Below are positions 1 to 13,664 of a DNA stretch of 13,664 nt, one piece after another. The translations under genes were made by a program, and so were the position numbers. How positions within the stretch are numbered: the stretch's first letter is position 1; each line of letters begins with the position of its first letter. Source of the stretch: a virus. The stretch lies in the UHGV virus genome UHGV-0143428; one strand, 5' to 3'. The notes beneath the pieces were generated by a model. It had not been told where the DNA came from. It did not search any database and saw only the letters and a list, made by a program, of their open reading frames with translations.

Positions 1-48
1 CGAGATAGGCTCCGGTCTCGTGGGCTCGGAGATGTGTATAAGAGACAG
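1..48. other. Illumina Nextera P7-side adapter (non-biological contig-end contamination)
   Basis: Bases 1-6 CGAGAT (end of P7), 7-14 AGGCTCCG (8-nt i7 index position; as recalled the reverse complement of Nextera index N720 CGGAGCCT), 15-29 GTCTCGTGGGCTCGG, 30-48 AGATGTGTATAAGAGACAG (Tn5 mosaic end). Genomic sequence begins at base 49. Confidence 0.9.
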
Positions 49-50
49 GG

Positions 51-80
51 CTAGGGAAGGCTAACCTTCCCTAGTTTTTT
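51..80. terminator. Perfect 10-bp inverted repeat (CTAGGGAAGG-ctaa-CCTTCCCTAG) plus T6, immediately downstream of the 355-aa gene stop; terminator-like hairpin
   Basis: Stem 51-60 / 65-74, loop 61-64, T-run 75-80 on the + strand. On the minus strand the U-run side would lie in the adapter-truncated region, so its function for the minus-strand operon cannot be confirmed. Confidence 0.4.
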
Positions 81-81
81 A

Positions 82-1149
82 TTAGATAAGATCTTCCTCA
101 TCATGATCAAAGCCATACTGTAGAGCTTCAGATAGCTCAATTTGCTTATTTAAGTGTAGATTCACTCGAACAGCAATCCATTTAGCTGGACTTCCCATAC
201 CTGCTATATCCCCTATAGCAGCATTTCTTATCATTGCAGCTCCCCAAGAGTCCTCCCTTTGATAATGTGGATACTCTGCCAAAATTGATTTCGCAGCTTC
301 AATGAACCCTTCTTTATTCATCCCAGGGCGGCGCTCGAAATACCATGAATCATTTAACGCTATATCAATTCTAGGAACATATCGCCCAATTATGTTGTCA
401 TACACTACTGAATGAATTGAACCATGATCGCCATAAATAGCGACATCACTTCCACCAATATTTTGATGCAATTCTCTCTCAATAACATCAATATATCCGG
501 ACTGTCCATTTTCACGGCAAAAATTTGTAACTGAACTAGGGAAGCTTGTTGCTAGCACACTAATTATGGCTTCAGGAATCTCAGTTCTAATCTGATTAAT
601 CGAATTTATTGCTGCAGCTGTTATAGCAGATACATTCCCTCTAATGTAGCCCAAATCTATGAAAACTATGGCATTTTCTGGAGAGTTCATCGATACTAGT
701 GACGTCAGGGTTTTATTAATGTCTGTATTTAGATTTCTAATTCTAAATGCAATTGAACCTTTAAGTTCCTCTAAAACCCTGGCTTGGATAGATATATCTC
801 TAAGTTTTGCTGAATCCGGCATCTGGACTACTGGAATAATATTATCATTTCTGGAACAAAACTCTATCCAGTTTTTAAAACCATTCTCAGGAGAGAGTAG
901 TTCGAAGCTTGACGCGCAATGATGAGAATTATCCTTTGTGACATCCAAAATAAATGGGAGATTACTCATCACTTCTAAACTTTTATCTAACGATACCTGT
1001 ATTTCTTCCGAGCGAGGCCATTTCCCCAAAGAAATTAAAGGTAATATTTTTTTCTTATTCTCATATGATAAATTATTCAGTCCGGTCATTTCTGCTGATC
1101 GTGTTCTTAGGGCTGGATAGTATGAGTAATTTTCAAAATATACTTTCAT
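82..1149 (-). CDS. Hypothetical 355-aa soluble protein, distal gene of the hotspot cassette; candidate P4 beta-type protein (unverified)
   Basis: Uninterrupted 355-codon ORF with a GGAGG RBS about 11 nt upstream of the ATG. The start lies 2 nt after the stop of the upstream 133-aa gene (TAA-AT-ATG), indicating translational coupling. About 37% GC versus about 55-60% in psu/alpha. No Walker A or other motif I can recognise by eye. It sits where P4 carries gop-beta-cII, between cos and int. Confidence 0.7.
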   Translation of the reverse strand: MKVYFENYSYYPALRTRSAEMTGLNNLSYENKKKILPLISLGKWPRSEEIQVSLDKSLEVMSNLPFILDVTKDNSHHCASSFELLSPENGFKNWIEFCSRNDNIIPVVQMPDSAKLRDISIQARVLEELKGSIAFRIRNLNTDINKTLTSLVSMNSPENAIVFIDLGYIRGNVSAITAAAINSINQIRTEIPEAIISVLATSFPSSVTNFCRENGQSGYIDVIERELHQNIGGSDVAIYGDHGSIHSVVYDNIIGRYVPRIDIALNDSWYFERRPGMNKEGFIEAAKSILAEYPHYQREDSWGAAMIRNAAIGDIAGMGSPAKWIAVRVNLHLNKQIELSEALQYGFDHDEEDLI

Positions 1150-1151
1150 AT

Positions 1152-1553
1152 TTAATTAGCCTCCGAATCGATATTTTCTGGTCGGCTTGCTGTTCTTGGC
1201 ATAGCGTTAATTTGGGGGTTCTGAGTAGCAAGATAAGCAGCTATACTTTCCATCTTCTCTTTCTGTTCTGAAGTTCTTGCAAGTTCTTTAATCAATTCTT
1301 TGTTTTCAGCCATCAAGTTTTGATTGGATTCATTATGACTCTTGATTACCTCCATATTACTTTTTATAACATTCGTGTGGTTGTTGCTAATTGCTTTAAT
1401 CGTTCTGTGTGTAAACCATCCAATAAGTAAAGCAGCTAACCATCCAGAACAAACGAGCAACCATTGTGAAATATCTTGGTTGCGGATGAAGCTAGTAGCA
1501 ATAGTGATTATGGTCCCAACAACGCCAATTAATCCATATACATGATTCAGCAT
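1152..1553 (-). CDS. 133-aa small membrane protein (two N-terminal TM helices plus charged coiled-coil tail); candidate toxin/effector of the hotspot cassette, possibly gop-type (unverified)
   Basis: Hydrophobic segments at about residues 6-23 (YGLIGVVGTIITIATSFI) and 31-47 (WLLVCSGWLAALLIGWF), followed by a K/E/N-rich helical tail. It is the first gene after cos, transcribed away from cos, and is AT-rich like its partner. Confidence 0.6.
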   Translation of the reverse strand: MLNHVYGLIGVVGTIITIATSFIRNQDISQWLLVCSGWLAALLIGWFTHRTIKAISNNHTNVIKSNMEVIKSHNESNQNLMAENKELIKELARTSEQKEKMESIAAYLATQNPQINAMPRTASRPENIDSEAN

Positions 1554-1780
1554 CCTTTAACTCTCTCATGCCACGAATTCTTAAGGATCTTGCGACACTG
1601 ACAAGAACCACCTTACATCAATCTATTTTTTGCATATTTTTCAGGATAGTGCCATCAAAAAAGACAGTTTTGGACCATAGGCCATAGATTTTCTTCATTA
1701 TGCTCCAATGTATTAACGAGGTATGTACTGAAGGCACTTTGACTACACAAATAATTAACTAACTTGTCGGTTTGCGCGCG

Positions 1781-1799
1781 GTGCTTTCCCCGCCTCGCC
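1781..1799. other. cos site: P2/P4-type 19-nt cohesive end sequence
   Basis: GTGCTTTCCCCGCCTCGCC at 1781-1799 is the reverse complement of GGCGAGGCGGGGAAAGCAC, the cohesive end of P2/186/P4 as I recall it. It is located just beyond the psu stop, as in P4. Confidence 0.8.
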
Positions 1800-1900
1800 C
1801 GCCCGCTTTGCGGGGCGGTTTTAATGCAGTTGCACTGACACGCTCAGACCGCGCCGGGAATGGCGCGGTTTGCAGAAAATGAGGCAGGAAAACGCATGCA

Positions 1901-1934
1901 AAGCCATGCACCTTATCGATGCATGGCTTTTTTC
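1901..1934. terminator. Intrinsic-terminator-like hairpin between psu stop and cos
   Basis: AAGCCATGCA (1901-1910), 9-nt loop, TGCATGGCTT (1920-1929), then a T-run on the + strand. It lies about 30 bp downstream of the psu stop codon (1965) on the opposite strand, so it is possibly bidirectional. Confidence 0.45.
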
Positions 1935-1964
1935 AGTAAAAACAGGCGGATTTTTCGGGGAGTT

Positions 1965-2537
1965 TTACACAGACTGACGTGATGCCAGTTCTGCACTTTT
2001 ACGCGAAAAAATCATGTTCTGCGCAGGGGTGAATTTTTCACGGCTGTCATCCACCGAAGCCGCGTCAGGCCTGAATCCGATGGTCGTTAAAATGTCGCTA
2101 TCCTGTGCGGAATAATTAATTTTTTCCCCCTTCGCAAGCCAGGACAGAAGGGCTTCACGCAGGGCATCTGTGGCACGCTGTATGGCACAGTTTCGGGCAA
2201 TGGCCGTCAGCTCACTGTAGCCCATCAGCTCCGGTGCCAGTGCGGCCGCCAGTGCTGTGCCGTGCTGCTGCATAAAATCATTCAGCCGCTCGCGGATGCT
2301 GATGTGCTGAACGGCTTCATGCGAACGAATATAACGACCGGCGGCCTGATTCACCTGCCATTTTCTGACTTCGATAATATTGCGTAATTCGTCCAGGCGA
2401 CTGACGTTTCTGCCTTCTCCTGACAGAAGCCGCAGATATTCCTGTTCGGCCGCTGCCAGCTCATTTTTGCGTTGCAGCCATGCTGCTTTGTTATTCTGAC
2501 AGGTGTCAAAGGCCTGCTGTAAGGCTGTGCTTTCCAT
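1965..2537 (-). CDS. psu: Psu, polarity suppression / capsid decoration protein (P4-type)
   Basis: 190-aa ORF starting MESTALQQAFDTCQNNK. Length and N-terminus match my recollection of P4 Psu. It is the last gene of the sid-delta-psu operon, adjacent to cos. Confidence 0.85.
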   Translation of the reverse strand: MESTALQQAFDTCQNNKAAWLQRKNELAAAEQEYLRLLSGEGRNVSRLDELRNIIEVRKWQVNQAAGRYIRSHEAVQHISIRERLNDFMQQHGTALAAALAPELMGYSELTAIARNCAIQRATDALREALLSWLAKGEKINYSAQDSDILTTIGFRPDAASVDDSREKFTPAQNMIFSRKSAELASRQSV

Positions 2538-2610
2538 CGTTATCTCTTTCTCATCATGCTGAAGAATAAAAATACGGTGTGCGGCGACGGCCGGTGTTAA
2601 CCGGCAGCCC

Positions 2611-3111
2611 TCATTCCAGACGCAGCGAATATGATTGTGTTTTTAACCGTACTGGCGGCAGTTCCTGTTTTTCATGCAGGCGTTCTGCCAGTTCGTCCGG
2701 CGTGACCGGGCGGACAATGAAGCGGTTGATGGTCTGAAGCGTTTTAAACACCAGACCACAGCCCGGATCCGTGCACACATAAAAACGCTCGGTGACTTCC
2801 TGAGACAGACGCCGCGATGTTCTTGACAGTGCAAGGCCTTTACATCTCCGACAACAATATCCGGTAACAAGCATTCTTTTCGGGCGTTTCATACCGCAGG
2901 AGGCTGACGTCAGTGAATCGCGGTATCTCTGTTTGCCTGAAATGTATTCCATTCCTGAATCTTTACTGTCAGAGAAAAAGCTTTCACTCGCTTCAAATGT
3001 CGCAGAGCAATAAATATTCCGGCACTGTGCAATCATTATCTTGGTGCCATCGTCCATGAAATGTGCGCGACGGGTGTGAGCAACATGTCCACACGACGGA
3101 CAGTAAATCAT
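2611..3111 (-). CDS. delta: Delta, late-gene transcriptional activator (tandem Ogr-type zinc-finger protein)
   Basis: 166 aa. Two Ogr-like Cys4 units (CPSCGH...CRNIYC near the N-terminus, and CCRRCKG...CTDPGC in the second half). Its start overlaps the sid stop (ATGA). Length matches P4 Delta as recalled. Confidence 0.85.
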   Translation of the reverse strand: MIYCPSCGHVAHTRRAHFMDDGTKIMIAQCRNIYCSATFEASESFFSDSKDSGMEYISGKQRYRDSLTSASCGMKRPKRMLVTGYCCRRCKGLALSRTSRRLSQEVTERFYVCTDPGCGLVFKTLQTINRFIVRPVTPDELAERLHEKQELPPVRLKTQSYSLRLE

Positions 3112-3842
3112 GACAGCAGCCCTCTGGCCTTAAGCTCTGCTCCCTGCTGGTCTATTTTGTCCTGCCACACCTTGCGCTGTGCCGGTGTGCCTGCCACCTC
3201 ATAATCCATGTGCGGGAGTGTTGCCGCTGACAGTCCGGTCAGCCGGAGAACCGGCTCGCCGGTGAGGCTGATTTGCATCTGTTTAATTTTCTGTTCCAGC
3301 GATGATTTCACCTGCTGCATGACAGCCTTTTCCGGTGCGACGTAGCCCTGATGGCCGGTGGTGTTGGCGAGCGGATTTTCCTGTACCAGAATGCTCAGAT
3401 GCATTGCCCGGACAAGCGCCTCACAGGTTTCATTCAGGGCGTGTTCCAGCTCATGCTCTGCATACAGACTCAGAAGGTGATGATGTGCCTTCCGGTAGGC
3501 GGTGGCCGTGCTGTCACACGCCCCTTTCAGGCGTTCACGTTCGAAATTCAGCACCACGGCCAGATTGTCATATTCCTGTACCAGCTCCCGGCGTGCCACG
3601 CGCTCAATGTGGCGCTGTTTCAGCTCGTCGCTCAGGACACCACCGGCTGCACGAAAGGCCGTGCGCCAGTCGTCAGCGTCGTTTCCGTCGGCCTGCGCCA
3701 GCGCATTTTTTTCCTGCTCTGCCCGTTCAATGGCCGTGACGGTCTCATCCATCAGGCGGGCGTTCTCAAGATGGGCGGCTCTGGCCTTTTCCAGTTGTGC
3801 CAGTGCGGGTTGCAGATATTCAGGGATAGTGTGGTCAGACAT
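3108..3842 (-). CDS. sid: Sid, capsid size-determination (external scaffold) protein
   Basis: The ORF is open from 3860, but the GAGGAG RBS sits 8 nt upstream of the internal ATG at 3842 (MSDHTIPEYL...), giving 244 aa, the P4 Sid length as recalled. It is a helical, Q/E/A-rich protein and the first gene of the late operon. Confidence 0.85.
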   Translation of the reverse strand: MSDHTIPEYLQPALAQLEKARAAHLENARLMDETVTAIERAEQEKNALAQADGNDADDWRTAFRAAGGVLSDELKQRHIERVARRELVQEYDNLAVVLNFERERLKGACDSTATAYRKAHHHLLSLYAEHELEHALNETCEALVRAMHLSILVQENPLANTTGHQGYVAPEKAVMQQVKSSLEQKIKQMQISLTGEPVLRLTGLSAATLPHMDYEVAGTPAQRKVWQDKIDQQGAELKARGLLS

Positions 3843-3914
3843 TTTCCGGCTCCTCGTCACTTCAGGTTAAGAAAATTGTGACGTACACCGGACAACAACA
3901 CGACGCATTGCAGA

Positions 3915-3932
3915 TGTGCCAGCCCTGACACA
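3915..3932 (-). promoter_or_regulatory. Candidate Delta/Ogr binding dyad (TGT-N12-ACA) of the sid late promoter
   Basis: TGTGCCAGCCCTGACACA. Its centre is about 80 bp upstream of the sid ATG, which would place a transcription start about 25 nt upstream of the ATG if the dyad is centred at -55, as in P2/P4 late promoters. The motif is short and could occur by chance. Confidence 0.3.
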
Positions 3933-4011
3933 GGAGACTCATCCTCAGACCGGCAAGCCAGGAAAAGGTCGCAGGAAAAACCGGCTTACTGTTTGTTTTT
4001 TTATATTTTAC

Positions 4012-4116
4012 TGTTCACCTCTGTTCACCTTAATAAAAAAGATAAGTAATACAGTAAGTTAAAGGGTGAACAATCGCAGTAATGACTGTTCACCGTCTGT
4101 TCACCACTGTTCACCC
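4012..4116. repeat. Iteron cluster (TGTTCACC octamers), ori-like alpha-protein binding region
   Basis: Direct copies of TGTTCACC at 4012, 4022, 4087, 4098 and 4109, and one inverted copy (GGTGAACA) at 4065. Flanked by AT-rich tracts. P4 alpha binds iterons of this type in ori and crr (recalled). Confidence 0.75.
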
Positions 4117-4219
4117 GTTGATGGGCTTTTTGTGCTGTTTACTACTGTTTGTTTTTATTAATTCGCCGGGAATGAATAAGAAGAAACGATTTGTATTTCA
4201 CTATAAAAATTACAAATTG

Positions 4220-4249
4220 CTTTAAGTGGCTTTAAATGACTTTAAGTGG
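4220..4249 (+). promoter_or_regulatory. Helically phased triple CTTTAA repeat / duplicated TTTAAGTGG upstream of vis (candidate operator/promoter element)
   Basis: CTTTAA at 4220, 4230 and 4240 (exact 10-bp phasing). TTTAAGTGG at 4221-4229 and 4241-4249. It is located about 150 bp upstream of the vis start in an AT-rich region. Confidence 0.35.
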
Positions 4250-4394
4250 AGATGAACAAAAAACACACAGCCATTGTAAGGCAGCCTGAACAAATCCCCC
4301 CTGTTGCGTCTGCTGAAAATATTCACAAAATAAAGCGCTACCCGAAGCCGGACGGACTTATCCGGTGCTGTATGGACATTAACGAGGTAGCCCG

Positions 4395-4661
4395 ATGCAA
4401 GCTGTTTTTTCTTCCCCGTCTCCCGCCCCAGTGACGCCACTGATGCCGCTGCCGGACATCACGCAGGAGCGTTTTTTACGTCTGCCGGAAGTGATGCACC
4501 TGTGCGGCCTGTCACGCTCGACCATCTACGAACTCATCCGTAAGGGGGAATTTCCGCCGCAGGTGAGTCTTGGCGGTAAAAATGTGGCCTGGCTGCACTC
4601 TGAAGTCACCGCATGGATGGCCGGGCGCATTGCCGGACGCAAACGGGGGTACGACGCATGA
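4395..4661 (+). CDS. vis: Vis/AlpA-family excisionase-type transcriptional regulator
   Basis: 88-aa ORF with the AlpA-family signature ([32 protein letters not shown]). GAGGT RBS 8 nt upstream of the ATG at 4395. An internal start at MPLPD cannot be excluded. Confidence 0.75.
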
Positions 4662-5059
4662 TGATGCCCGCTCTGCAAAAACTCCCTTTTTCTGGCTTGC
4701 CTTTTTCCGGCATTTGCGGATATAGTTTTTCCGCTGCCGCAAAATCGGCAGCCGGGCGTGAGAACCCGAGCAATTCACAGGCGACATATGACGCGCCACG
4801 CGTCTTTTTTTGTGTCGCAATCAATGCCACAGAGCGCCAGATTATGGTGTGGTGTGTGGTCAGTCGTGCAGATGGCATTCCGTGCATCCTGCCCGCGTCC
4901 GCTCATTATGCCGCAGAGTCAATGGTAGCTCAGGCGGGGCAGCCTCCGGGCTGGCCGGTATCCGTTAGAGCCGGTATTCTCACCCCCGTCTGGGCTATCG
5001 CCATCGAGCGTGAGAACTCCGGCGATAGCGTTATTTGCTATTCACAGGAGGCTGCCATC

Positions 5060-5257
5060 ATGGCTACAACCCTTACCCCCTCACACCCTGAATTTGTCTT
5101 TGTGTTTGCGGCTGTCCGTCGCGCAGACCGTCATCCCCGTATCTGTATGCTTCGCACCGTCGCCGGTGATGAACGCAGTGCCCGCCGTTCCCTTGTCCGT
5201 GACTATGTGCTCTCCCTTGCTGCCCGTCTGCCGGTGGTGGAGGTGTCCCGTGCGTAA
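5060..5257 (+). CDS. Small hypothetical protein (65 aa) of the leftward operon, translationally coupled to the epsilon-like gene
   Basis: An internal ATG at 5060 within the long 4613-5257 reading frame is preceded by AGGAGG 7 nt upstream. The stop overlaps the GTG start of the next gene. The upstream part of the long ORF is more likely RNA/leader. Confidence 0.4.
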
Positions 5258-5537
5258 TAAAAAAGCCCCTCAGACCGTCTCAGCGCGTCATGACGCCCGT
5301 GAACACCTCAGCATTGAGGCTTACCATAAGCTCAACCGCGCCAGCGCCGTATCCCGGTTTGTTGGGGGTGATTTGATTCACCGTGAACTCTCCGGCCTGC
5401 ATCAGCTCTACATTCCGCATATTTTCAGCTACCTGAATGAAGATATTGATTTTGTGCTGAATGAGCTGAAAGCCAAAGGCCTGTGCCGCGATTTTCTCGC
5501 CCAGCAGAAAGACCGGGGAGACAGGACGCATGTTTGA
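5250..5537 (+). CDS. Epsilon-like protein (P2-derepression factor position), about 95 aa, GTG start
   Basis: GTG at 5250 preceded by GGAGGTG 5-6 nt upstream, in frame through the stop at 5535-5537, which overlaps the ATG of the orf151-like gene. Size and position relative to orf151/alpha match P4 epsilon as recalled; the sequence identity is not verified. Confidence 0.5.
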
Positions 5538-5985
5538 TTTTCCCCAGCCCGGTGAGATTTACCGTTCTGCCGGTTTTCCCGATGTGGCCGTGGTCGGCAT
5601 TCTGGAAGACGGTATTCCGTGGGAAATGCCGTACCGCTGCCCGGACATTGTCTGGAACCCGTACCGCCGTAAATTCAGTATCCTTGTGCGTATCCTCGCT
5701 GACGGACGCACCACAGACATCCCGCTGGGGCGTTTTCTGCGGGAATTTACCTGTGACCGTCCTGACCTGTTTAAACGCAGCCCCGTAAACCGGCATTCGG
5801 TACTGAAAGAAATGGCCGGAGACCCGGAATTACAGAAATGGCGGGAAAAATATCTGGATATTTACCCGCAGGACACTGTTCCGGTCAGCCGGGCAGCACC
5901 GGTGGCGCGGGAATGGCGGGAAATTCCCCGCACGGAGCCTGACCCGGAAACCACCCCGGATAACAGTTACCGCAATTATCTGTAA
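5530..5985 (+). CDS. orf151-like protein (151 aa) of the alpha operon
   Basis: Exactly 151 codons. Its ATG overlaps the upstream gene's stop. It lies upstream of alpha, as does P4 orf151. Confidence 0.65.
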   Translation: MFDFPQPGEIYRSAGFPDVAVVGILEDGIPWEMPYRCPDIVWNPYRRKFSILVRILADGRTTDIPLGRFLREFTCDRPDLFKRSPVNRHSVLKEMAGDPELQKWREKYLDIYPQDTVPVSRAAPVAREWREIPRTEPDPETTPDNSYRNYL

Positions 5986-6120
5986 TTAAAAAACGACCCC
6001 CGAAAAATTAAATGTGCGTATTCGCGCAGGGATACGCACGTCTTCAGGAGACGCAGATATGCCTTATCAGTTAATGCAACCGGCACGGAATGCAGTCATC
6101 TGTCACAGGGAGAAAAGCAA

Positions 6121-6441
6121 ATGAAAACACCCTTACCGCCCGTCTTACGCGCTGCCCTTTACCGTCGCGCTGTCGCCTGTGCCTGGCTGACCGTGTGCGA
6201 ACGTCAGCACCGCTACCCGCATCTCACCCTTGAATCACTGGAGGCGGCCATCGCCGCTGAGCTGGAAGGCTTTTATCTGCGCCAGCACGGTGAGGAAAAA
6301 GGGCGCCAGATAGCCTGTGCCCTGCTGGAAGATTTAATGGAATCCGGCCCCCTGAAGGCCGCGCCGTCGCTGTCCTTTCTCGGGCTGGTTGTGATGGATG
6401 AACTCTGTGCCCGTCACATAAAAGCGCCGGTACTGCACTGA
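6121..6441 (+). CDS. Hypothetical 106-aa protein immediately upstream of alpha
   Basis: ORF with a GGGAGA RBS, ending 14 bp before the alpha start. Preceded by a 21-codon upstream ORF whose TGA overlaps its ATG. Confidence 0.55.
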
Positions 6442-6455
6442 AGGAGAACAACACC

Positions 6456-8789
6456 ATGAAAATGAACGTAACCGCCACCGTCAGCCATGCGCTCGGCCAC
6501 TGGCCGCGTATTCTCCCGGCGCTGGGGATTCAGGTGCTGAAGAACCGTCATCAGCCCTGTCCGGTCTGTGGCGGGAGTGACCGTTTCCGTTTTGATGACA
6601 GGGAGGGGCGCGGCACCTGGTACTGCAATCAGTGTGGTGCCGGTGACGGCCTGAAACTGGTTGAAAAGGTGTTTGGTGTTTCCCCGTCCGACGCGGCCGC
6701 AAAGGTGGCTGCCGTGACCGGCAGCCTGCCACCGGCTGACCCGGCAGTGACGACCGCCGCCGGTGCTGAAACAGACGCTGCCCGGAAGAACGCCGCCGCA
6801 CTGGCACAAACCCTGATGGCGAAAACCCGTCCCGGAACCGGTAACGCCTACCTGACCCGCAAGGGCTTTCCCGGCCGGGAATGCCGGATGCTGACCGGCA
6901 CACACAGAGCCGGTGGCGTGAGCTGGCGCGCCGGTGACCTTGTGGTGCCACTGTATGACGACAGCGGCGAACTGGTTAACCTTCAGTTAATCAGTGCTGA
7001 CGGCCGTAAGCGCACCCTGAAAGGCGGGCAGGTCAGGGGCACCTGTCACATCCTTGAAGGACAGAATCAGGCCGGAAAACGTCTGTGGATAGCGGAGGGA
7101 TACGCGACCGCACTTACCGTGCATCACCTGACCGGTGAAACGGTGATGGTGGCGCTTTCTTCCGTGAACCTCCTTTCTCTGGCCAGCCTTGCCCGGCAGA
7201 AGCATCCGGCCTGTCAGATTGTCCTTGCCGCAGACCGTGACCTCAGCGGTGACGGCCAGAAAAAAGCCGCCGCAGCCGCAGATGCGTGTGAGGGCGTTGT
7301 TGCCCTGCCGCCGGTCTTCGGTGACTGGAATGATGCCTTCACGCAGTACGGCAGGGAGGCCACCCGTAAGGCCATTTATGATGCCATCCGGCCACCGGCT
7401 GAAAGCCCGTTCGACACCATGAGCGAAGCGGAGTTTTCCGCCATGAGTACCAGCGAAAAGGCCATGCGTATCTATGAGCATTACGGCGAGGCGCTCGCGG
7501 TCGATGCCAACGGCCAGCTTCTGTCCCGCTATGAAAATGGTGTCTGGAAGGTGCTGCCACCACAGGACTTTGCCCGGGATGTGGCCGGGCTGTTTCAGCG
7601 TCTGCGCGCGCCGTTCTCCTCCGGGAAGGTGGCCTCCGTGGTGGACACCCTGAAGCTGATTATTCCGCAGCAGGAAGCCCCCTCCCGCCGCCTGATTGGC
7701 TTTCGTAACGGCGTGCTCGACACGCAGAACGGCACGTTCCACCCGCACAGTCCGTCACACTGGATGCGCACCCTGTGCGATGTGGATTTCACCCCGCCGG
7801 TGGACGGTGAAACGCTGGAGACCCACGCCCCCGCGTTCTGGCGCTGGCTTGACCGTGCCGCCGGTGGCCGTGCGGAAAAACGCGACGTGATTCTGGCCGC
7901 ACTGTTTATGGTGCTGGCAAACCGCTACGACTGGCAGCTCTTTCTGGAGGTGACCGGTCCCGGCGGCAGCGGCAAAAGTATCATGGCCGAAATAGCCACC
8001 CTGCTGGCCGGGGAGGATAACGCCACGTCGGCCACCATTGAGACGCTGGAATCCCCGCGTGAACGTGCCGCGTTAACTGGCTTCTCACTGATACGCCTGC
8101 CGGACCAGGAAAAATGGAGCGGCGACGGTGCCGGACTCAAGGCCATCACCGGCGGCGATGCGGTGTCCGTTGACCCGAAATACCGGGATGCGTACTCCAC
8201 GCATATCCCGGCGGTGATTCTGGCCGTGAACAATAACCCGATGCGCTTCACCGACCGCAGCGGCGGCGTGTCACGCCGGCGGGTGATTATTCACTTCCCG
8301 GAACAGATAGCCCCGCAGGAGCGCGACCCGCAGCTTAAGGACAAAATCACCCGCGAGCTGGCGGTCATCGTGCGTCACCTGATGCAGAAGTTCAGCGACC
8401 CGATGCTCGCCCGGTCACTGCTTCAGTCCCAGCAGAACTCAGACGAGGCGCTGAACATCAAACGGGATGCCGACCCGACGTTTGATTTTATCGGCTATCT
8501 GGAAACCCTGCCGCAGACCAGCGGCATGTATATGGGGAACGCCAGTATCATCCCGCGCAATTACCGTAAATACCTCTATCACGCCTATCTGGCCTACATG
8601 GAGGCAAACGGCTACCGGAATGTACTCAGTCTGAAAATGTTCGGGCTGGGGCTGCCGGTGATGCTGAAGGAATACGGACTGAATTACGAGAAGCGCCATA
8701 CCAAACAGGGGATACAGACCAACCTGACGCTGAAAGAGGAAAGCTACGGCGACTGGCTGCCAAAATGTGACGACCCTACAACAGCCTGA
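6456..8789 (+). CDS. alpha: Alpha protein: bifunctional primase-helicase with C-terminal origin-binding domain
   Basis: 777 aa, the P4 alpha length as recalled. N-terminal zinc motif CPVCGG...YCNQCG, TOPRIM-like EGYATALTV and LAADRD, Walker A GPGGSGKS at 7951-7974, and Walker-B-like acidic residues. AAGGAG RBS 8 nt upstream of the ATG. Confidence 0.9.
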   Translation: MKMNVTATVSHALGHWPRILPALGIQVLKNRHQPCPVCGGSDRFRFDDREGRGTWYCNQCGAGDGLKLVEKVFGVSPSDAAAKVAAVTGSLPPADPAVTTAAGAETDAARKNAAALAQTLMAKTRPGTGNAYLTRKGFPGRECRMLTGTHRAGGVSWRAGDLVVPLYDDSGELVNLQLISADGRKRTLKGGQVRGTCHILEGQNQAGKRLWIAEGYATALTVHHLTGETVMVALSSVNLLSLASLARQKHPACQIVLAADRDLSGDGQKKAAAAADACEGVVALPPVFGDWNDAFTQYGREATRKAIYDAIRPPAESPFDTMSEAEFSAMSTSEKAMRIYEHYGEALAVDANGQLLSRYENGVWKVLPPQDFARDVAGLFQRLRAPFSSGKVASVVDTLKLIIPQQEAPSRRLIGFRNGVLDTQNGTFHPHSPSHWMRTLCDVDFTPPVDGETLETHAPAFWRWLDRAAGGRAEKRDVILAALFMVLANRYDWQLFLEVTGPGGSGKSIMAEIATLLAGEDNATSATIETLESPRERAALTGFSLIRLPDQEKWSGDGAGLKAITGGDAVSVDPKYRDAYSTHIPAVILAVNNNPMRFTDRSGGVSRRRVIIHFPEQIAPQERDPQLKDKITRELAVIVRHLMQKFSDPMLARSLLQSQQNSDEALNIKRDADPTFDFIGYLETLPQTSGMYMGNASIIPRNYRKYLYHAYLAYMEANGYRNVLSLKMFGLGLPVMLKEYGLNYEKRHTKQGIQTNLTLKEESYGDWLPKCDDPTTA

Positions 8790-8837
8790 CCCACCTGACC
8801 GGCATCTGCCGGTCTTTTTTTATCCCGACATCCCCCG

Positions 8838-9115
8838 AAGGTGAACAATCCACTGTTCACCCTTCACCGTATATTCACCCGTTATCACACTGAAATTAAA
8901 AGAGAAAAACGAAAGGTGAACAGTGTGAACAATCAAATCAAAAAAAACTTTTTTCTTCCTGAGTGATTTCAGTGCGGAGGATTAATCACCGGTATGAGTC
9001 ACACCGGCAGAATGCCGGAGGTGAAGAATCGAATGTTCACCCTTCACCCATTATTCACCACCTATCACTCTGAAATAAAAGGAGAAAACAGAAAGGTGAA
9101 CAGTGTGAACAGTTC
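8838..9115. repeat. crr-like cis replication region: two ~97-bp direct repeats (about 85% identical, period 180 bp) each carrying several iterons and followed by an A-run/T-run block
   Basis: Repeat A at 8838-8934 and repeat B at 9018-9114. Each contains GGTGAACA, TGTTCACC, CTTCACC, ATTCACC and the terminal GAAAGGTGAACAGTGTGAACA. A7/T6 tracts follow at 8938-8954 and 9120-9136. Confidence 0.75.
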
Positions 9116-9326
9116 TTTCGAAAAAAAATTTTTTATGTGGATAAAAGATGCACTGGTTTGGATCCGAGCTACGGATCCAAACTTACTGATTAAAAATGAT
9201 TTAACTTTCCGATTTATTGATGGGCTGAAAATAGATTGGTCAGAAAAACAGTGGGGGCACAAAAGGGGGCATATTTCATTGTTGTGTTTTATTATTTGTT
9301 TTTTATCATTAACTTATTTTGATGTT

Positions 9327-9346
9327 TGAGTCCGGCCTTCGCACCA
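9327..9346 (+). other. att core: 20-bp copy of a tRNA 3' end (T-arm/acceptor/CCA), tRNA-Leu (leuX)-like
   Basis: TGAGTCCGGCCTTCGCACCA matches, with one missing G, the 3' end of E. coli tRNA-Leu(CAA) as I recall it (..TTCGAGTCCGGCCTTCGGCACCA). Upstream sequence is AT-rich and not tRNA-like, so this is a core repeat (attR-type) rather than a full tRNA gene. Confidence 0.6.
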
Positions 9347-9359
9347 AAAGTATGTAAAT

Positions 9360-9384
9360 AGACCTCAACTGAGGTCTTTTTTTA
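9360..9384 (+). terminator. Rho-independent terminator (tRNA-type terminator on the chromosomal side of the att core)
   Basis: AGACCTC (9360-9366), loop AACT, GAGGTCT (9371-9377), followed by T7 (9378-9384). Confidence 0.7.
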
Positions 9385-9459
9385 TGCCTGAAATCCAGTG
9401 TTTATCTATCTTTCCCGCTATATTAACTCTCTCAAGGTCAACCGATATCAACGTACATC

Positions 9460-9477
9460 TACCAACATATGTTGGTA
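9460..9477. promoter_or_regulatory. 18-bp perfect palindrome TACCAACATATGTTGGTA in the integrase promoter region, plus a third half-site
   Basis: Perfect dyad at 9460-9477. An additional TACCAACA half-site at 9511-9518 lies just upstream of the int RBS (GGGAGGG). Candidate Int arm-type or repressor site. Confidence 0.45.
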
Positions 9478-9531
9478 CAGATGATGGTATTTCCGGTTCG
9501 ATAATGCTTGTACCAACAGGGAGGGAATACG

Positions 9532-10797
9532 ATGGCATTAACAGATATCAAAGTCAGAGCAGCCAAGCCAACGGATAAGCAATATTAGCTGACTGATGGT
9601 GGCGGTATGCATCTGCTTGTCCATCCAAATGGTTCTAAGTACTGGCGTTTGCAGTACCGTTATGAGGGAAAGCAAAAAATGCTGGCACTTGGGGTTTATC
9701 CTGAAATCACACTAGCGGATGCCAGAGTACGTCGTGACGAGACGCGTAAGCTGCTTGCGAATGGCGTCGATCCGGGAGACAAAAAGAAAAATGATAAGGT
9801 TGAACAGAGTAAAGCACGAACCTTTAAAGAAGTCGCGATTGAGTGGCATGGCACCAATAAAAAGTGGTCTGAAGATCACGCCCATCGTGTGCTAAAAAGT
9901 CTTGAAGATAATCTTTTTGCAGCGCTTGGTGAACGTAATATCGCTGAGTTAAAAACTCGAGATTTATTAGCACCTATTAAGGCCGTAGAAATGTCTGGAC
10001 GTCTTGAAGTGGCCGCTCGTCTTCAGCAGCGCACTACAGCCATCATGCGCTATGCAGTGCAAAGTGGGTTAATTGATTATAACCCGGCACAAGAGATGGC
10101 TGGGGCGGTTGCTTCCTGTAATCGACAACATCGTCCCGCGCTTGAATTAAAGCGCATCCCTGAGTTGCTTACAAAAATAGATAGCTATACTGGTAGGCCG
10201 CTAACCCGATGGGCGATAGAACTCACTTTGCTGATCTTTATTCGGTCCAGTGAGCTGCGTTTTGCTCGTTGGTCAGAGATCGATTTCGAAGCGTCTATAT
10301 GGACTATCCCACCGGAGCGGGAGCCTATTCCTGGAGTGAAACATTCCCATAGAGGCTCAAAAATGCGTACAACGCATCTAGTGCCTCTTTCAACGCAAGC
10401 TCTTGCAATTTTAAAGCAGATAAAACAGTTTTATGGGGCCCATGACTTGATATTTATTGGTGATCACGATTCGCACAAACCCATGAGTGAGAATACGGTA
10501 AATAGTGCGTTACGGGTCATGGGGTATGATACAAAAGTAGAGGTTTGTGGTCATGGCTTTCGAACAATGGCCTGTAGTTCATTGGTCGAATCAGGTCTGT
10601 GGTCTCGTGATGCTGTTGAACGTCAGATGAGCCACATGGCGCGAAATTCAGTGAGGGCCGCGTATATCCATAAAGCAGAGCATCTGGAAGAACGGCGATT
10701 GATGCTACAGTGGTGGGCCGATTTTCTGGATGTAAACAGAGAAAGGTTTATCAGTCCATTTGAATATGCAAAGATTAATAATCCATTAAAACAGTAA
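9532..10797 (+). pseudogene. int: P4-family tyrosine integrase with an in-frame amber codon at codon 19 (N-terminally disrupted; 396-aa ORF remains from an internal Met)
   Basis: ATG at 9532 with RBS encodes MALTDIKVRAAKPTDKQY, then TAG at 9586-9588, then in the same frame LTDGGGMHLLVHPNGSKYW... This is the conserved P4-type integrase N-terminus interrupted by a stop. The downstream ORF 9607-10797 carries the integrase catalytic region (R..H..R..Y type C-terminus). Confidence 0.8.
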
Positions 10798-11197
10798 TCA
10801 TCCCGGGCAAATGCCCGGGAATTATTCTAGGATTATTTTCTTTGTTAAAAAAGACAAACGGTATTAACTGATGTATTTACTATTTACCGCTCCCTGCAGG
10901 GGGGATTATCAGAATCCGCGGTTATTCATTATTTATATACATTCAATAAAAAAGTAACCTCATAAAAAATCCTGTACTCACAGGGTGATGCGGGATAACT
11001 GACGTAAGGAGTGCTGCAGGGATTTGATGGTCCCTTGTGCTGATATGAATACGGATATTTTATACAGAATACTTTTCAGTACAAGCGACTGTATTACAGT
11101 CTGCCATATATGATTACCTGTGATCAGGAAGAATAAGTGGCTGAGGTTTCAAACTGTCTGCCGGTATATTCCTCTCTCCCTTAAAAACCATAACAGG

Positions 11198-12420
11198 TTA
11201 GTTATCTTCGTCTGTCAGCGGATTGAATGGCGGTATATTTTCAGTACAAATACCGGTCATCCACTGAAAAATACCTGCGAAATGACGGGCACTGATTTTT
11301 CTACTGACGGGCTGATGAGACGTTATGTCACTGGCGGTAATAATCAGTGGCACACTGTAGCCTCCCTGCACATGACCATAATGATGAACAGGATTGGCAC
11401 TGTCGCTGACCGACAGCCCAAGGCCAGAAAAGTAAAGCATGGCGAAATGACGTGAGTACCGGCGAAGGATACCATCAAGCTGGCCAAGAAAGTTATCCAG
11501 TTTACTGATGCTGGCGAGGTAACAGGCAATTTTTCGGGGATACTGCTCCAGGTAATTATTCGGCTAGGAGTTAAGGCTGTCACACGGATTTGGATGAGAA
11601 CCCATCATGTGCAGGAAAATTATCTTCGGAGAGGATGTATCCGCCAGCGCACGTTCTGTTTCCTGTAACAACAGTTTGTCATCTGTTTTACGGGAAGCGA
11701 AGCTGCCTTTCTTGAGGAAAGTGGCATGCTCCGCATCAGAAGCAATAACAGAGATGCGTGTGTCATGCTCCCCCAGTTTTCCTTGATTGGATATCCACCA
11801 TGTGCTGTATCCTGCTTTTGCTGCCAGCGCCACCACATTGTTGCCGGAATCAGGGTTCTGCTCATAGTCATAAATCAGTGTCCGGCTCAGGGAAGACACT
11901 GTACTGGAGGCTGTCGAGGTATAATCGTCAATAAATAAACCGGGTGCCGTATTCAGCCACGGTGTGGTTGGTACGGGATAGTCATACACTGACATATAAT
12001 CCCTGCGCACACTCTCACCAGTGACAATAACAATCGTATCATATAACGGTGCTCCCGGCTGGATTTTCCAGTTGTCAGCCCCGTGCTACTCAGTTGTTCA
12101 TAACGCTGCATTTCACGTAATGTGTCAGTTGTCCCCACAACTGTTCCTTTAACCATCCGCAATGGCCAACGGTTTACAGAGCATAATACGAATAGCCGTA
12201 GAGCCAGCCAGTTACGGTGGTCGCGATGGTGTGTCCGCCAGAAAATCACCACGAATACCAGAATCGCGGCACTGACCAGAAAATGATAAACAGGAAACAC
12301 GGGGCGGTTCACTTTGCTTTCTCCTGTAGTGTTTTCTGTAGGTTCTGAACCGGTTCTAGCGGGGTTGTGAGGCTGATGGCAATCGCCGGGCTCTTCCTGC
12401 ATGTTACACTGGTACTGCAA
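11198..12420 (-). pseudogene. Frameshifted sulfatase-family (phosphoethanolamine-transferase-like) membrane protein pseudogene
   Basis: Adjacent minus-strand ORFs in different frames: 11953-12420 contains a hydrophobic TM segment; 11564-12010 contains sulfatase-type motifs (RRDYMSVYDYPV, FLHMMGSHP); 11344-11583 and 11198-11440 continue in other frames. Boundaries are approximate. Confidence 0.5.
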
Positions 12421-12780
12421 GAGGGGGCCTTCGCTCCTCTGACATTACTCAGTATTTTCACTACTACACCCCATCTGCCATCCATAACAACCGATTCACC
12501 CCCTCGCGAGGCGTTGTTGCCCGTCACCCGGACAGACACCGTTATGGACTTCTCTTGTTGCACGATCGATCAATTGTTATGCATGCTGACACCACAACCC
12601 CGGTGGGTATGACCGATGCCTTTCTCACTCTCTTCCCGGTCATCGTCGGCCTTCCCCGTTATTGTGGCGTGTCAGCACCCTCGACGGCATTTCGATGGCT
12701 GCTCAGTGTTCACTCACGTTACGGCCCGCATAACCCGTTGACTTCCTGAAGAAGTCGTTTCAGGGAGAGATTCAGCCCTT

Positions 12781-13110
12781 TTGTTACCTCCTGGACCGCT
12801 TCTTGTCCTTCCAGTCGGAGCGAGAGTTAGCCGGGGCGGACTTTCACCGACGGAAAGATCGTGCATTTCAAGGCACACACAACAATATCTGCGAGCGTGC
12901 TATCCGTCCGGTCGTTATGGGACGAAAGGCCTGGTTGTTCGCTGGTTCACTGGTGGCCGGGAACCGCGCGGCACAGATAATGAGCCTTCTGGGAACCGCA
13001 GTCTGGAGCCACATGCTTGGCTGACGGACGTCCTGACGCGTCTGCCGGAGTGGCCGGAGGAGAGGTTGGCTGAGTTACTGCCTCTTGAGGGCTTTACCTT
13101 CTTCGGGTAA
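12781..13110 (+). mobile_element. IS66-family transposase 3' remnant (C-terminal about 100 codons, frameshifted, lacking the DDE domain)
   Basis: Frame 1 (12803-13024) reads NNICERAIRPVVMGRKAWLFAGSLVAGNRAAQIMSLLGTA; frame 2 (to 13110) reads PHAWLTDVLTRLPEWPEERLAELLPLEGF. Together these are the conserved IS66 TnpC C-terminal block, split by a frameshift near 12990-13020. No upstream catalytic region is present. Confidence 0.6.
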
Positions 13111-13614
13111 GTGATACCTGCCGTCAGGTGTTTGTGCACCGGGCCATAACCTGCAGTTGGGAATTGAACGCCTGACAACAGGAAATGAGCTAGAGCAGTA
13201 AACACGCGGGCTGACAATGGGTCAGAATATGAGTTAGCCCGGCGTTATTCCTGGGGTCAGTACTTCAGATCTAGCCTCCGGTACCAGACTAGCTAGCCCC
13301 TACGCAACCAAATAAATCAACCATCGTCAGAGTGCAATCGTTCATATACACTGTCGGTGATGCGCTAAAAAATGCGTTAATGTTGAGTTCCTCGAACCCT
13401 TACCAATTAAGGGACATAGCCAGATACGCAACTGGCTGATGCAAGCAGTCTAATGTCTTTAGATCCGCTGGCCTGCGGGCATGACAATGTCAAACAGTCA
13501 AAGATTGTGGCGTTGACGGTCAGTCTTGGGGACAAAAAAGCTCAGTATTCTCGTTGGCAACCAGATAATTTAACAGTTGATGCTGAAACGAAATAGGCAT
13601 CTTGGTTCTGTAAT

Positions 13615-13647
13615 GCCAGTCAGTTAAGCAACTGACTGGCTCTTTTT
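13615..13647 (+). terminator. Strong rho-independent terminator with no upstream ORF over 60 codons
   Basis: GCCAGTCAGTT (13615-13625), loop AAGC, AACTGACTGGC (13630-13640), then TCTTTTT (13641-13647). Confidence 0.6.
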
Positions 13648-13664
13648 CGGGGCTGTGGGGTATT

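Follow-up and report, generated by a model that had tools for sequence, protein, structure and literature searches.

Is the P4-type satellite in this viral DNA phage P4 itself, and if so, which P4, in what state, and with what borders? The window, i.e., the whole stretch of 13,664 nucleotides (nt) that was analyzed (UHGV virus genome UHGV-0143428), had been described in the initial annotation as holding a near-complete P4-type backbone at positions 1781 to 9346, likely P4 or a very close relative. Alignment to the phage P4 reference (NC_001609/X51522) bore this out. Positions 48 to 9346 are colinear with P4. Over these 9,299 nt, the two differ 53 times (99.4% identity), and gene order, orientation, and gene lengths are all the same as in the reference; neither low identity nor an altered gene order was found. 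We are highly confident that the window contains the right-hand four-fifths of a P4 prophage, a wild allele variant inserted at the leuX 3' end of an E. coli chromosome, and that the short-read contig carrying it ends before cII, int, and attL.

Correspondence with the P4 reference

The match consists of two megablast/blastn blocks, window 48-1799 (P4 1752 to 1, with 1 mismatch) and window 1800-9346 (P4 11624 to 4078, with 47 mismatches plus small indels). The two blocks meet at cos, which is the joint of the two ends of the linear P4 record. The window includes 80% of the P4 genome, and 1781-9346 includes 65%. Both ends of the latter range are exact landmarks: 1781 opens cos, and 9346 closes the att core. 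"Near-complete" is a fair wording for it (the window lacks cII, int, and attL). P4 DNA runs on to the left of cos as far as position 48. All 12 of the coding sequence (CDS) intervals annotated in P4 that fall inside the window are at reference length and without an internal stop; one of these 12 is the old "cI" interval, which actually houses the CI RNA. Every item listed earlier, from cos through psu, delta, sid, the ori iterons, vis, epsilon, orf151, and alpha to crr, was found at its place and at its given size with all open reading frames (ORFs) intact, but the list had omitted gop-beta, cnr/orf106, and the CI RNA with its target (Table 1).

TABLE 1 Features of the window
Feature	Position	Strand	Description
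P4 nonessential region, cos to cII	48-1780	-	P4 1752 to 20, 1 mismatch
cII terminator hairpin	~51-80
beta	82-1149	-	355 aa; Pfam Beta_protein, 4e-56
gop	1152-1553	-	133 aa; one change versus reference, N71K
cos	1781-1799	.	GTGCTTTCCCCGCCTCGCC; exact reverse complement of P4 bases 1-19
psu	1965-2537	-	190 aa; capsid decoration protein and Rho inhibitor; Pfam Psu (PF07455), E = 1.8e-88, full length
delta	2611-3111	-	166 aa; late-gene transactivator; two Ogr-type zinc-finger halves
sid	3108-3842	-	244 aa from ATG; external scaffold forcing small capsids
ori	3616-4339	.	Mapped from P4 rep_origin annotation 9086-9809
vis (orf88)	4395-4661	+	88 aa; AlpA-family excisionase/regulator; Pfam Phage_AlpA (PF05930), E = 7.3e-21
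Early (left) operon leader	4720-4810	+	Immunity-RNA target (c4-a1b1 type, 4720-4772); isrK-like terminator element (4733-4810)
CI immunity RNA (C4 antisense RNA family)	4918-5005	+	Rfam RF01695, 74.5 bits, E = 1e-14, full length
epsilon	5250-5537	+	95 aa, GTG start; helper derepression protein; Pfam Derepression (PF25738), 9e-51
orf151	5530-5985	+	151 aa; single change versus P4 ORF151, A90S
orf106/cnr (copy-number regulator)	6121-6441	+	106 aa; Pfam DUF5375, 3e-63
alpha	6456-8789	+	777 aa; primase-helicase, ori/crr-binding replication protein
t-alpha terminator	~8797-8821
crr	8835-9134	.	cis-required replication region; maps to P4 crr annotation 4291-4590; carries type-1 iterons
attR	9251-9346	+	P4 att arm repeats, 9251-9274; core, 9328-9346
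E. coli chromosome 3' of leuX, outside the element	9347-13664	+	Matches E. coli C, BL21, REL606, and many other genomes lacking P4 here at 100% identity
Resident leuX-island integrase	9607-10797	+	396 aa; P4 type, 59% identical to P4 Int

The Sid, Delta, Beta, Epsilon, and ORF106 proteins are identical to those of the reference, and sid and delta are identical in nucleotide sequence as well. Amino acid changes were found in Alpha (5), Psu (3), Gop (1), Vis (1), and ORF151 (1). The cos site, the ori iterons, crr, the att arm repeats, and the gop-beta hotspot cargo are the same in both. Delta matched Ogr_Delta (PF04606) in two stretches (E = 6.5e-22). Pfam has no Sid model, and Sid was called by its identity with P4 Sid; the mechanically defined ORF starts at an upstream GTG and gives 250 aa, versus 244 aa from the ATG. 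Alpha matched Zn_Ribbon_Prim, Toprim_3, D5_N, DUF5906, and Pox_D5 (PF03288; E = 3.6e-16) in Pfam and, at its cutoff, TIGR01613 ("primase, P4 family"). No Pfam family was matched by orf151.

The direct repeats of the replication origin were also found independently of the P4 annotation. A repeat search gave five direct copies of the type-1 iteron (TGTTCACC) in 4010-4029 and 4085-4115 and three type-2 repeats of 10 bp each in 4214-4249; a sixth type-1 copy, inverted, was mapped from the P4 annotation to 4065-4072. The same kind of search resolved crr into two 120-nt direct repeats (8835-8954 and 9015-9134) that are 82% alike and spaced 180 nt apart.

The sequence GTGCTTTCCCCGCCTCGCC at cos, which we take to be the 19-nt cohesive end (GGCGAGGCGGGGAAAGCAC), is a P2-type cohesive-end site that exactly matches the terminal 19 nt of the P4 record, and the region around it (1770-1846) is 88 to 94% identical to the cos regions of P2-type phages. 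Within the window, cos is internal and has not been cut, as would be expected of a genome that was circularized and then integrated. The P4 reference, in contrast, is virion DNA; here the element is integrated, and cII, int, and the other att arm are off the contig. By these comparisons, the element is known P4 in a wild allele variant, the type member of the P4-like family and not a divergent one, and nothing in it is new.

P4-like satellites in E. coli number in the thousands. Between a quarter and a half of E. coli genomes carry a member of the P4 satellite family (PMC8628076, PMC9122126). By the criteria of Moura de Sousa and Rocha (PMC8628076), which use PF10554 (Phage_ASH) as the epsilon marker and a custom profile for sid, the window contains the P4-like markers psu, delta, sid, alpA, the epsilon marker, and alpha; the seventh, an integrase belonging to the element itself, is not on the contig. 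The cnr family is present between epsilon and alpha in 90% of P4-like elements (PMC8628076).

Borders of the element and the leuX site

Positions 1-47 have no match to P4, and the start of the contig (1-48) is an untrimmed Nextera transposase adapter plus index. P4 cII, int, and attL are missing from the window because the contig stops in this adapter; P4 1753-4077 (cII and int) is not on the contig, and the only integrase present sits in the host island. A biological junction at the left end (a deletion, a cassette, or other hotspot cargo) was considered and rejected, since adapter sequence is read there.

At the right end, five sequences were aligned: the attR of the window, attB of E. coli C, attP of P4, and a wild attL and attR. 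The P4 match stops at 9346, and identity with the host begins one base on, at 9347, which in E. coli C directly follows tRNA-Leu(CAA). The attR core, 19 bp (GAGTCCGGCCTTCGCACCA), is the 3' end of leuX minus one G; it has the arm of P4 attP on its left and post-leuX host DNA on its right, and it agrees with 19 of the 20 nt of the core. The core of P4 attP and leuX has one G more (20 bp), whereas the 19-bp form is found in three wild lysogens. A tRNA scan of the window found no tRNA, as expected because attR keeps only the 3' 19 nt of leuX. Judged by this alignment, the element is integrated at the usual tRNA-Leu site, leuX, of an E. coli chromosome. The flank also holds a sulfatase/EptA-type pseudogene, IS66 and group II intron fragments, and an IS4 end.

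The integrase gene just beyond attR could be taken for the element's own, as in an int-swapped P4-like element read in circular order (alpha-att-int). Circular P4 has alpha, att, and int side by side in the same order and orientation (PMC8628076), and the protein is a P4-type integrase related to P4 Int. However, E. coli C, BL21, and REL606, which lack P4 at this site, carry the same flank, with the integrase and what lies downstream of it directly after leuX at 100% identity; furthermore, wild lysogens carry two integrases, one per end. This reading is therefore extremely improbable, and the empty-site comparison with E. coli C led us to reject it; from that comparison, the 396-aa integrase is a property of the resident leuX island and not of P4. 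It is also unlikely, if less so, that the window shows a stranded, defective P4 that has lost int, cII, and attL and can no longer be mobilized. Their absence from the window and the 19-bp rather than 20-bp attR core would fit such a remnant, but the left break is an assembly artifact because the contig ends in adapter, every gene present is intact, and int-cII modules are complete in wild lysogens that share the 19-bp attR core.

Origin of the differences from the reference

The 53 differences were compared site by site among the P4 reference and three wild leuX P4-like prophages, CNREC_004-43, EEC_W5, and LC-1302-2020, which are 99.2%, 98.7%, and 98% identical, respectively. These share with the window the leuX site, the 19-bp attR core, the backbone, and the gop-beta-cII hotspot cargo, but they lie further from it than the P4 reference, with 74 to 264 differing sites across the 9.3 kb in common. 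The layout of LC-1302-2020 is complete: ahr-leuX-int-cII-beta-gop-psu-...-alpha-attR-island integrase-...-IS4. Its island integrase, EptA pseudogene, and IS4 lie downstream as in the window.

Could the element be laboratory P4 lysogenized in a laboratory host such as E. coli C, with every one of the 53 differences an error in the 1990 reference? The window does have all three wild relatives on its side against the reference at 19 of these sites, some differences are adjacent-base swaps (e.g., CG/GC at 4732-4733) that resemble gel-reading errors, and the host flank is 100% identical to that of the E. coli C and B laboratory strains. Many wild isolates, however, share that flank, likewise at 100% identity. 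Twelve of the 53 differences are private to the window, the reference and all three wild prophages agreeing against it, and 21 sites are polymorphic among the wild prophages with the reference allele included, which makes them real polymorphisms. In addition, 22 of the 27 nucleotide differences in alpha are synonymous (the other 5 are nonsynonymous), a bias not expected of errors. Using the three wild prophages as outgroups, and given the skew toward synonymous changes in alpha, we reject this account for most of the sites and consider it very unlikely as a whole.

The element, with its 53 differences, is not identical to the sequenced laboratory isolate; on the site-by-site comparison it is a sibling of laboratory P4. 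Its alleles form a mosaic of alleles found in different wild elements, and the allele at the psu end (1900-2300) is 100% identical in at least eight wild E. coli genomes. As judged from these patterns, the differences are largely natural alleles, beyond reference errors alone. About 19 sites of the 1990 P4 reference, at which its bases are absent from the wild relatives examined, are probably errors or private laboratory mutations.

The significance of the locus is low, P4 being the type member of a common satellite family and this copy being 99.4% identical to it. Its value is to annotation: the borders of the element are set at 48 and 9346, its state is given as integrated, at attR, the neighboring integrase is assigned to the host island and not to the satellite, and an untrimmed sequencing adapter is exposed at the start of the contig.

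Immunity region and predicted life cycle

The leader of the early operon matched Rfam families RF03163 (49.5 bits) and RF01394 (69.7 bits), both above their gathering scores. The CI RNA sits within the old "cI 137 aa"/Ash-family ORF (4613-5257; 214 aa), which matched Phage_ASH (PF10554; E = 2e-24). In the window, 4 of the 12 nt of the second-hairpin loop of the CI RNA are changed relative to the P4 reference. When the CI RNA was compared with the remainder of the early leader, Watson-Crick complementarity of ≥8 nt occurred only in runs at 4938-4947 and 4994-5002, and in this search no run touched the polymorphic loop. A 7-nt match (UUCUCAC/GUGAGAA) with the a1b1 hairpin loop was spotted by eye only. 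We think it most improbable that the four-base change in the loop alters immunity specificity or that the 19-bp attR core alters excision. Both variants are common to other wild lysogens.

The regulatory and hijacking steps that follow are proposed from the intact parts, from PMC8628076 and PMC9122126, and from general knowledge of P4. In the lysogen, the CI RNA would pair with its targets in the early-operon leader, terminating transcription and keeping epsilon, cnr, and alpha off. A P2-type helper, resident or infecting, would derepress P4, and Vis, together with Int (which lies outside the window), would excise the element across attL and attR. Alpha would then replicate P4 from ori with crr, while Epsilon would inactivate the P2 repressor and Delta would switch on the late genes of both P2 and P4. 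With Sid as external scaffold, P2 capsid protein would be built into small heads, which Psu would decorate, also blocking Rho; finally, the P2 terminase would cut the shared cos and package the 11.6-kb genome. That the element is probably inducible by a P2-type helper, as the initial annotation supposed, can reasonably be inferred from its intact epsilon, delta, sid, psu, cos, alpha, ori, and crr.

The gap between cos and cII is a variable defense hotspot in P4-like satellites, and gop-beta-cII has anti-lambda and anti-P1 activity (Rousset et al., PMC9122126). Next to cos, gop-beta(-cII) would serve P4 as an accessory antiphage cassette; in the window, the cos-adjacent hotspot holds gop-beta.

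Composition of the contig and its match to phage P4

The window, a contig from short-read assembly, consists of three segments: adapter, satellite phage P4, and E. coli chromosome (see the table). A megablast search of 50,697 phage records returned the P4 reference genome (X51522/NC_001609) as the top match, with 99.4% identity. In a pairwise blastn alignment, positions 48-1799 differed from P4 1752..1 by one mismatch and positions 1800-9346 from P4 11624..4078 by 47 mismatches as well as a few indels; a global alignment gave 53 differences in total. The two blocks are colinear and meet at 1799/1800, where cos joins the linear virion record end to end. Reverse-complemented, the sequence GTGCTTTCCCCGCCTCGCC at 1781-1799 is identical to P4 bases 1-19; it is the 19-nt P2/P4 cohesive end. 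The region around it (1770-1846) was an 88-94% match to P2-type phages in the megablast search.

The initial annotation had proposed P4 or a very close relative, and the alignment to the P4 reference bears this out. All the backbone items that it listed (cos, psu, delta, sid, ori, vis/AlpA, epsilon, orf151, alpha, and crr) are present at the sizes it gave, and its borders are exact: cos starts at 1781, and the att core ends at 9346. Its observation is confirmed, and its interpretation is supported by sequence comparison. Missing from its list were the CI RNA and its target, the isrK-like element, orf106/cnr, gop, and beta. The P4 element here is already known; nothing about it is new.

Features of the contig (gene map transferred from the P4 reference annotation)
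Feature	Position	Strand	Details
Illumina Nextera adapter, untrimmed	1-48		CGAGAT, 1-6; 8-nt index AGGCTCCG, 7-14; GTCTCGTGGGCTCGGAGATGTGTATAAGAGACAG, 15-48
Satellite phage P4	48-9346
beta	82-1149	-	355 aa
gop	1152-1553	-	133 aa
cos	1781-1799		GTGCTTTCCCCGCCTCGCC
psu	1965-2537	-	190 aa
delta	2611-3111	-	166 aa
sid	3108-3842	-	244 aa
ori type-1 units	4010-4029, 4085-4115		five direct copies of TGTTCACC (repeat search)
ori type-2 repeats	4214-4249		three, 10 bp (repeat search)
vis/orf88	4395-4661	+	88 aa
Immunity RNA upstream target, c4-a1b1	4720-4772		Rfam
isrK-like element	4733-4810		Rfam
Immunity RNA (CI RNA), C4 family	4918-5005		Rfam, 74.5 bits
epsilon	5250-5537	+	95 aa, GTG start
orf151	5530-5985	+	151 aa
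orf106/cnr	6121-6441	+	106 aa
alpha	6456-8789	+	777 aa
crr	8835-8954, 9015-9134		two 120-nt copies, 82% alike (repeat search)
attR core	9328-9346		19 bp, GAGTCCGGCCTTCGCACCA
E. coli chromosome	9347-13664
P4-type tyrosine integrase	9607-10797		396 aa, 59% identical to P4 Int; 261 nt after att core
Sulfatase/EptA-type pseudogene fragment	11564-12010		identical in E. coli C and B
Group II intron D1-D4 fragment	12714-12853	-	RF02003 (Rfam); identical in E. coli C and B
IS66 C-terminal fragment	12781-13110		identical in E. coli C and B
IS4	13625-13664		right contig end

Both ends of the contig lie at typical short-read assembly breaks. The left end is adapter read-through (a literature search gave 1,836 papers containing both the adapter's 34-mer and the word Nextera), and positions 1-48 are an assembly artifact that should be masked. 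The right end lies inside IS4, where the E. coli C match extends only 41 nt into the insG 3' end; repeats commonly break contigs in this way. That cII, int, and attL are missing is therefore uninformative about the strain.

Genes and immunity RNA of the P4 element

None of the 10 mapped genes, beta to alpha, has an internal stop or a change in length. Pfam and NCBIfam independently confirmed the gene families Psu, Phage_AlpA, "Derepression," and DUF5375. Ogr_Delta matched the delta protein in two stretches, the tandem zinc-finger halves noticed previously, and alpha matched Zn_Ribbon_Prim, Toprim_3, D5_N, DUF5906, Pox_D5, and TIGR01613 ("primase, P4 family"). orf106 is cnr, and in 90% of P4-like elements a member of its family lies between epsilon and alpha (PMC8628076). 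The further P4 DNA to the left of cos carries gop and beta, which with cII make up the P4 hotspot's accessory anti-phage cassette (PMC9122126).

The immunity RNA region lies inside an ORF named "cI 137 aa" or "ash" in old records, and a Phage_ASH domain is found there. That domain, PF10554, is the literature's "epsilon" marker for P4-like satellites, and it matched the ORF at 4613-5257, which overlaps the CI RNA gene; the 95-aa epsilon protein belongs to PF25738 and had no PF10554 match. Use of PF10554 as "epsilon" is a naming trap in satellite annotation. At 4964-4968, in the loop of the second CI RNA hairpin, the window has GUUAG and the P4 reference UGUGA, so that 4 of the 12 loop nts differ. 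This loop is polymorphic in the wild, the prophage of EEC_W5 having the window's version and that of CNREC_004-43 the reference's. A search of the CI RNA against the remainder of the leader for perfect complementarity of ≥8 nts gave nothing that involved the polymorphic loop.

Every part required for the P4 lifestyle that falls on the contig is intact. From established P4 biology (PMC8628076, PMC9122126, and the wider P4 literature), we infer that in the lysogen the early operon would be held terminated by CI RNA until a P2-type helper derepressed P4. Vis and Int would then excise the element, and Alpha would replicate it from ori with crr, with copy number under Cnr control. Epsilon would derepress a resident P2, Delta would switch on the late genes, and Sid would direct the P2 capsid protein into small heads, which Psu, also an inhibitor of Rho, would stabilize. 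P2 terminase would package from cos, and gop-beta-cII would shield the host from unrelated phages.

Differences from the P4 reference

We sorted the 53 differing sites using three wild leuX prophages (CNREC_004-43, EEC_W5, and LC-1302-2020) as outgroups. At 19 sites all three agreed with the window, at 12 all three agreed with the reference, at 21 both alleles occurred among them, and 1 site had another pattern. The approximately 19 reference-private positions, which include adjacent-base swaps (e.g., CG/GC at 4732-4733), are probably errors or private laboratory mutations in the 1990 sequence. Of the 27 differences in alpha, 22 are synonymous, a pattern characteristic of real divergence under selection and not of sequencing error. 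The window's alpha allele is 99.3% identical to wild alleles versus 98.8% to the reference, and an apparently private cluster at the psu 3' end (1944-1992) was 100% identical in at least eight wild genomes. The best whole-element match in 5,426 complete E. coli genomes was 99.2%, lower than the 99.4% of the reference. Taken together, the site patterns, the bias in alpha, the shared psu variants, and the match levels indicate that the element is a mosaic of wild alleles, and no closer relative of sequenced P4 is known.

Integration at leuX and the host flank

Because cos is internal and uncut, the element is not virion DNA. The P4 match ends with the att core. E. coli C, BL21, REL606, and many wild strains share the following 4,318 nts at 100% identity; in E. 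coli C the matching stretch begins at the first base after the tRNA-Leu gene leuX, at a site without P4. A five-way alignment gave the textbook pattern: the window's attR consists of the attP left arm, the core, and host post-leuX sequence, and a wild attL consists of leuX, the core, and the int-side arm of P4. A tRNA scan of the whole window predicted none, as expected because attR retains only the last 19 nts of leuX. The leuX 3' end and the reference attP have one G more than the attR core. The one-G-short core was also present in attR of all three wild leuX lysogens, and the full GG in the sole attL examined and in leuX of E. coli C, where the site is empty. Either the true attP has one G with the crossover 3' of it, or decay has occurred in the displaced tRNA end.

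The layout is complete in LC-1302-2020 (ahr-leuX-int-cII-beta-gop-psu-delta-sid-vis-...-alpha-attR-integrase-EptA pseudogene-IS66 fragment-IS4), of which the window spans the end of cII to the IS4 edge. The 396-aa integrase follows alpha-crr-att, the position held by P4's own int in the circular genome. We assign it to the resident leuX island and not to P4 because in E. coli C and B it is present, base for base, beside a leuX that carries no P4. A satellite finder based on gene order could misassign it to P4, a claim that the initial annotation did not make. The locus thus has P4-type integrases in tandem. The region from 11564 to 13110 is decayed island cargo.

The chromosome directly 3' of the island integrase (10792-11028) shares 237 bp at 100% identity with Escherichia phage Ge15 (PP359696, a 170.9-kb record; host, MG1655). 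This match could be host DNA acquired by the phage or a contaminated record.
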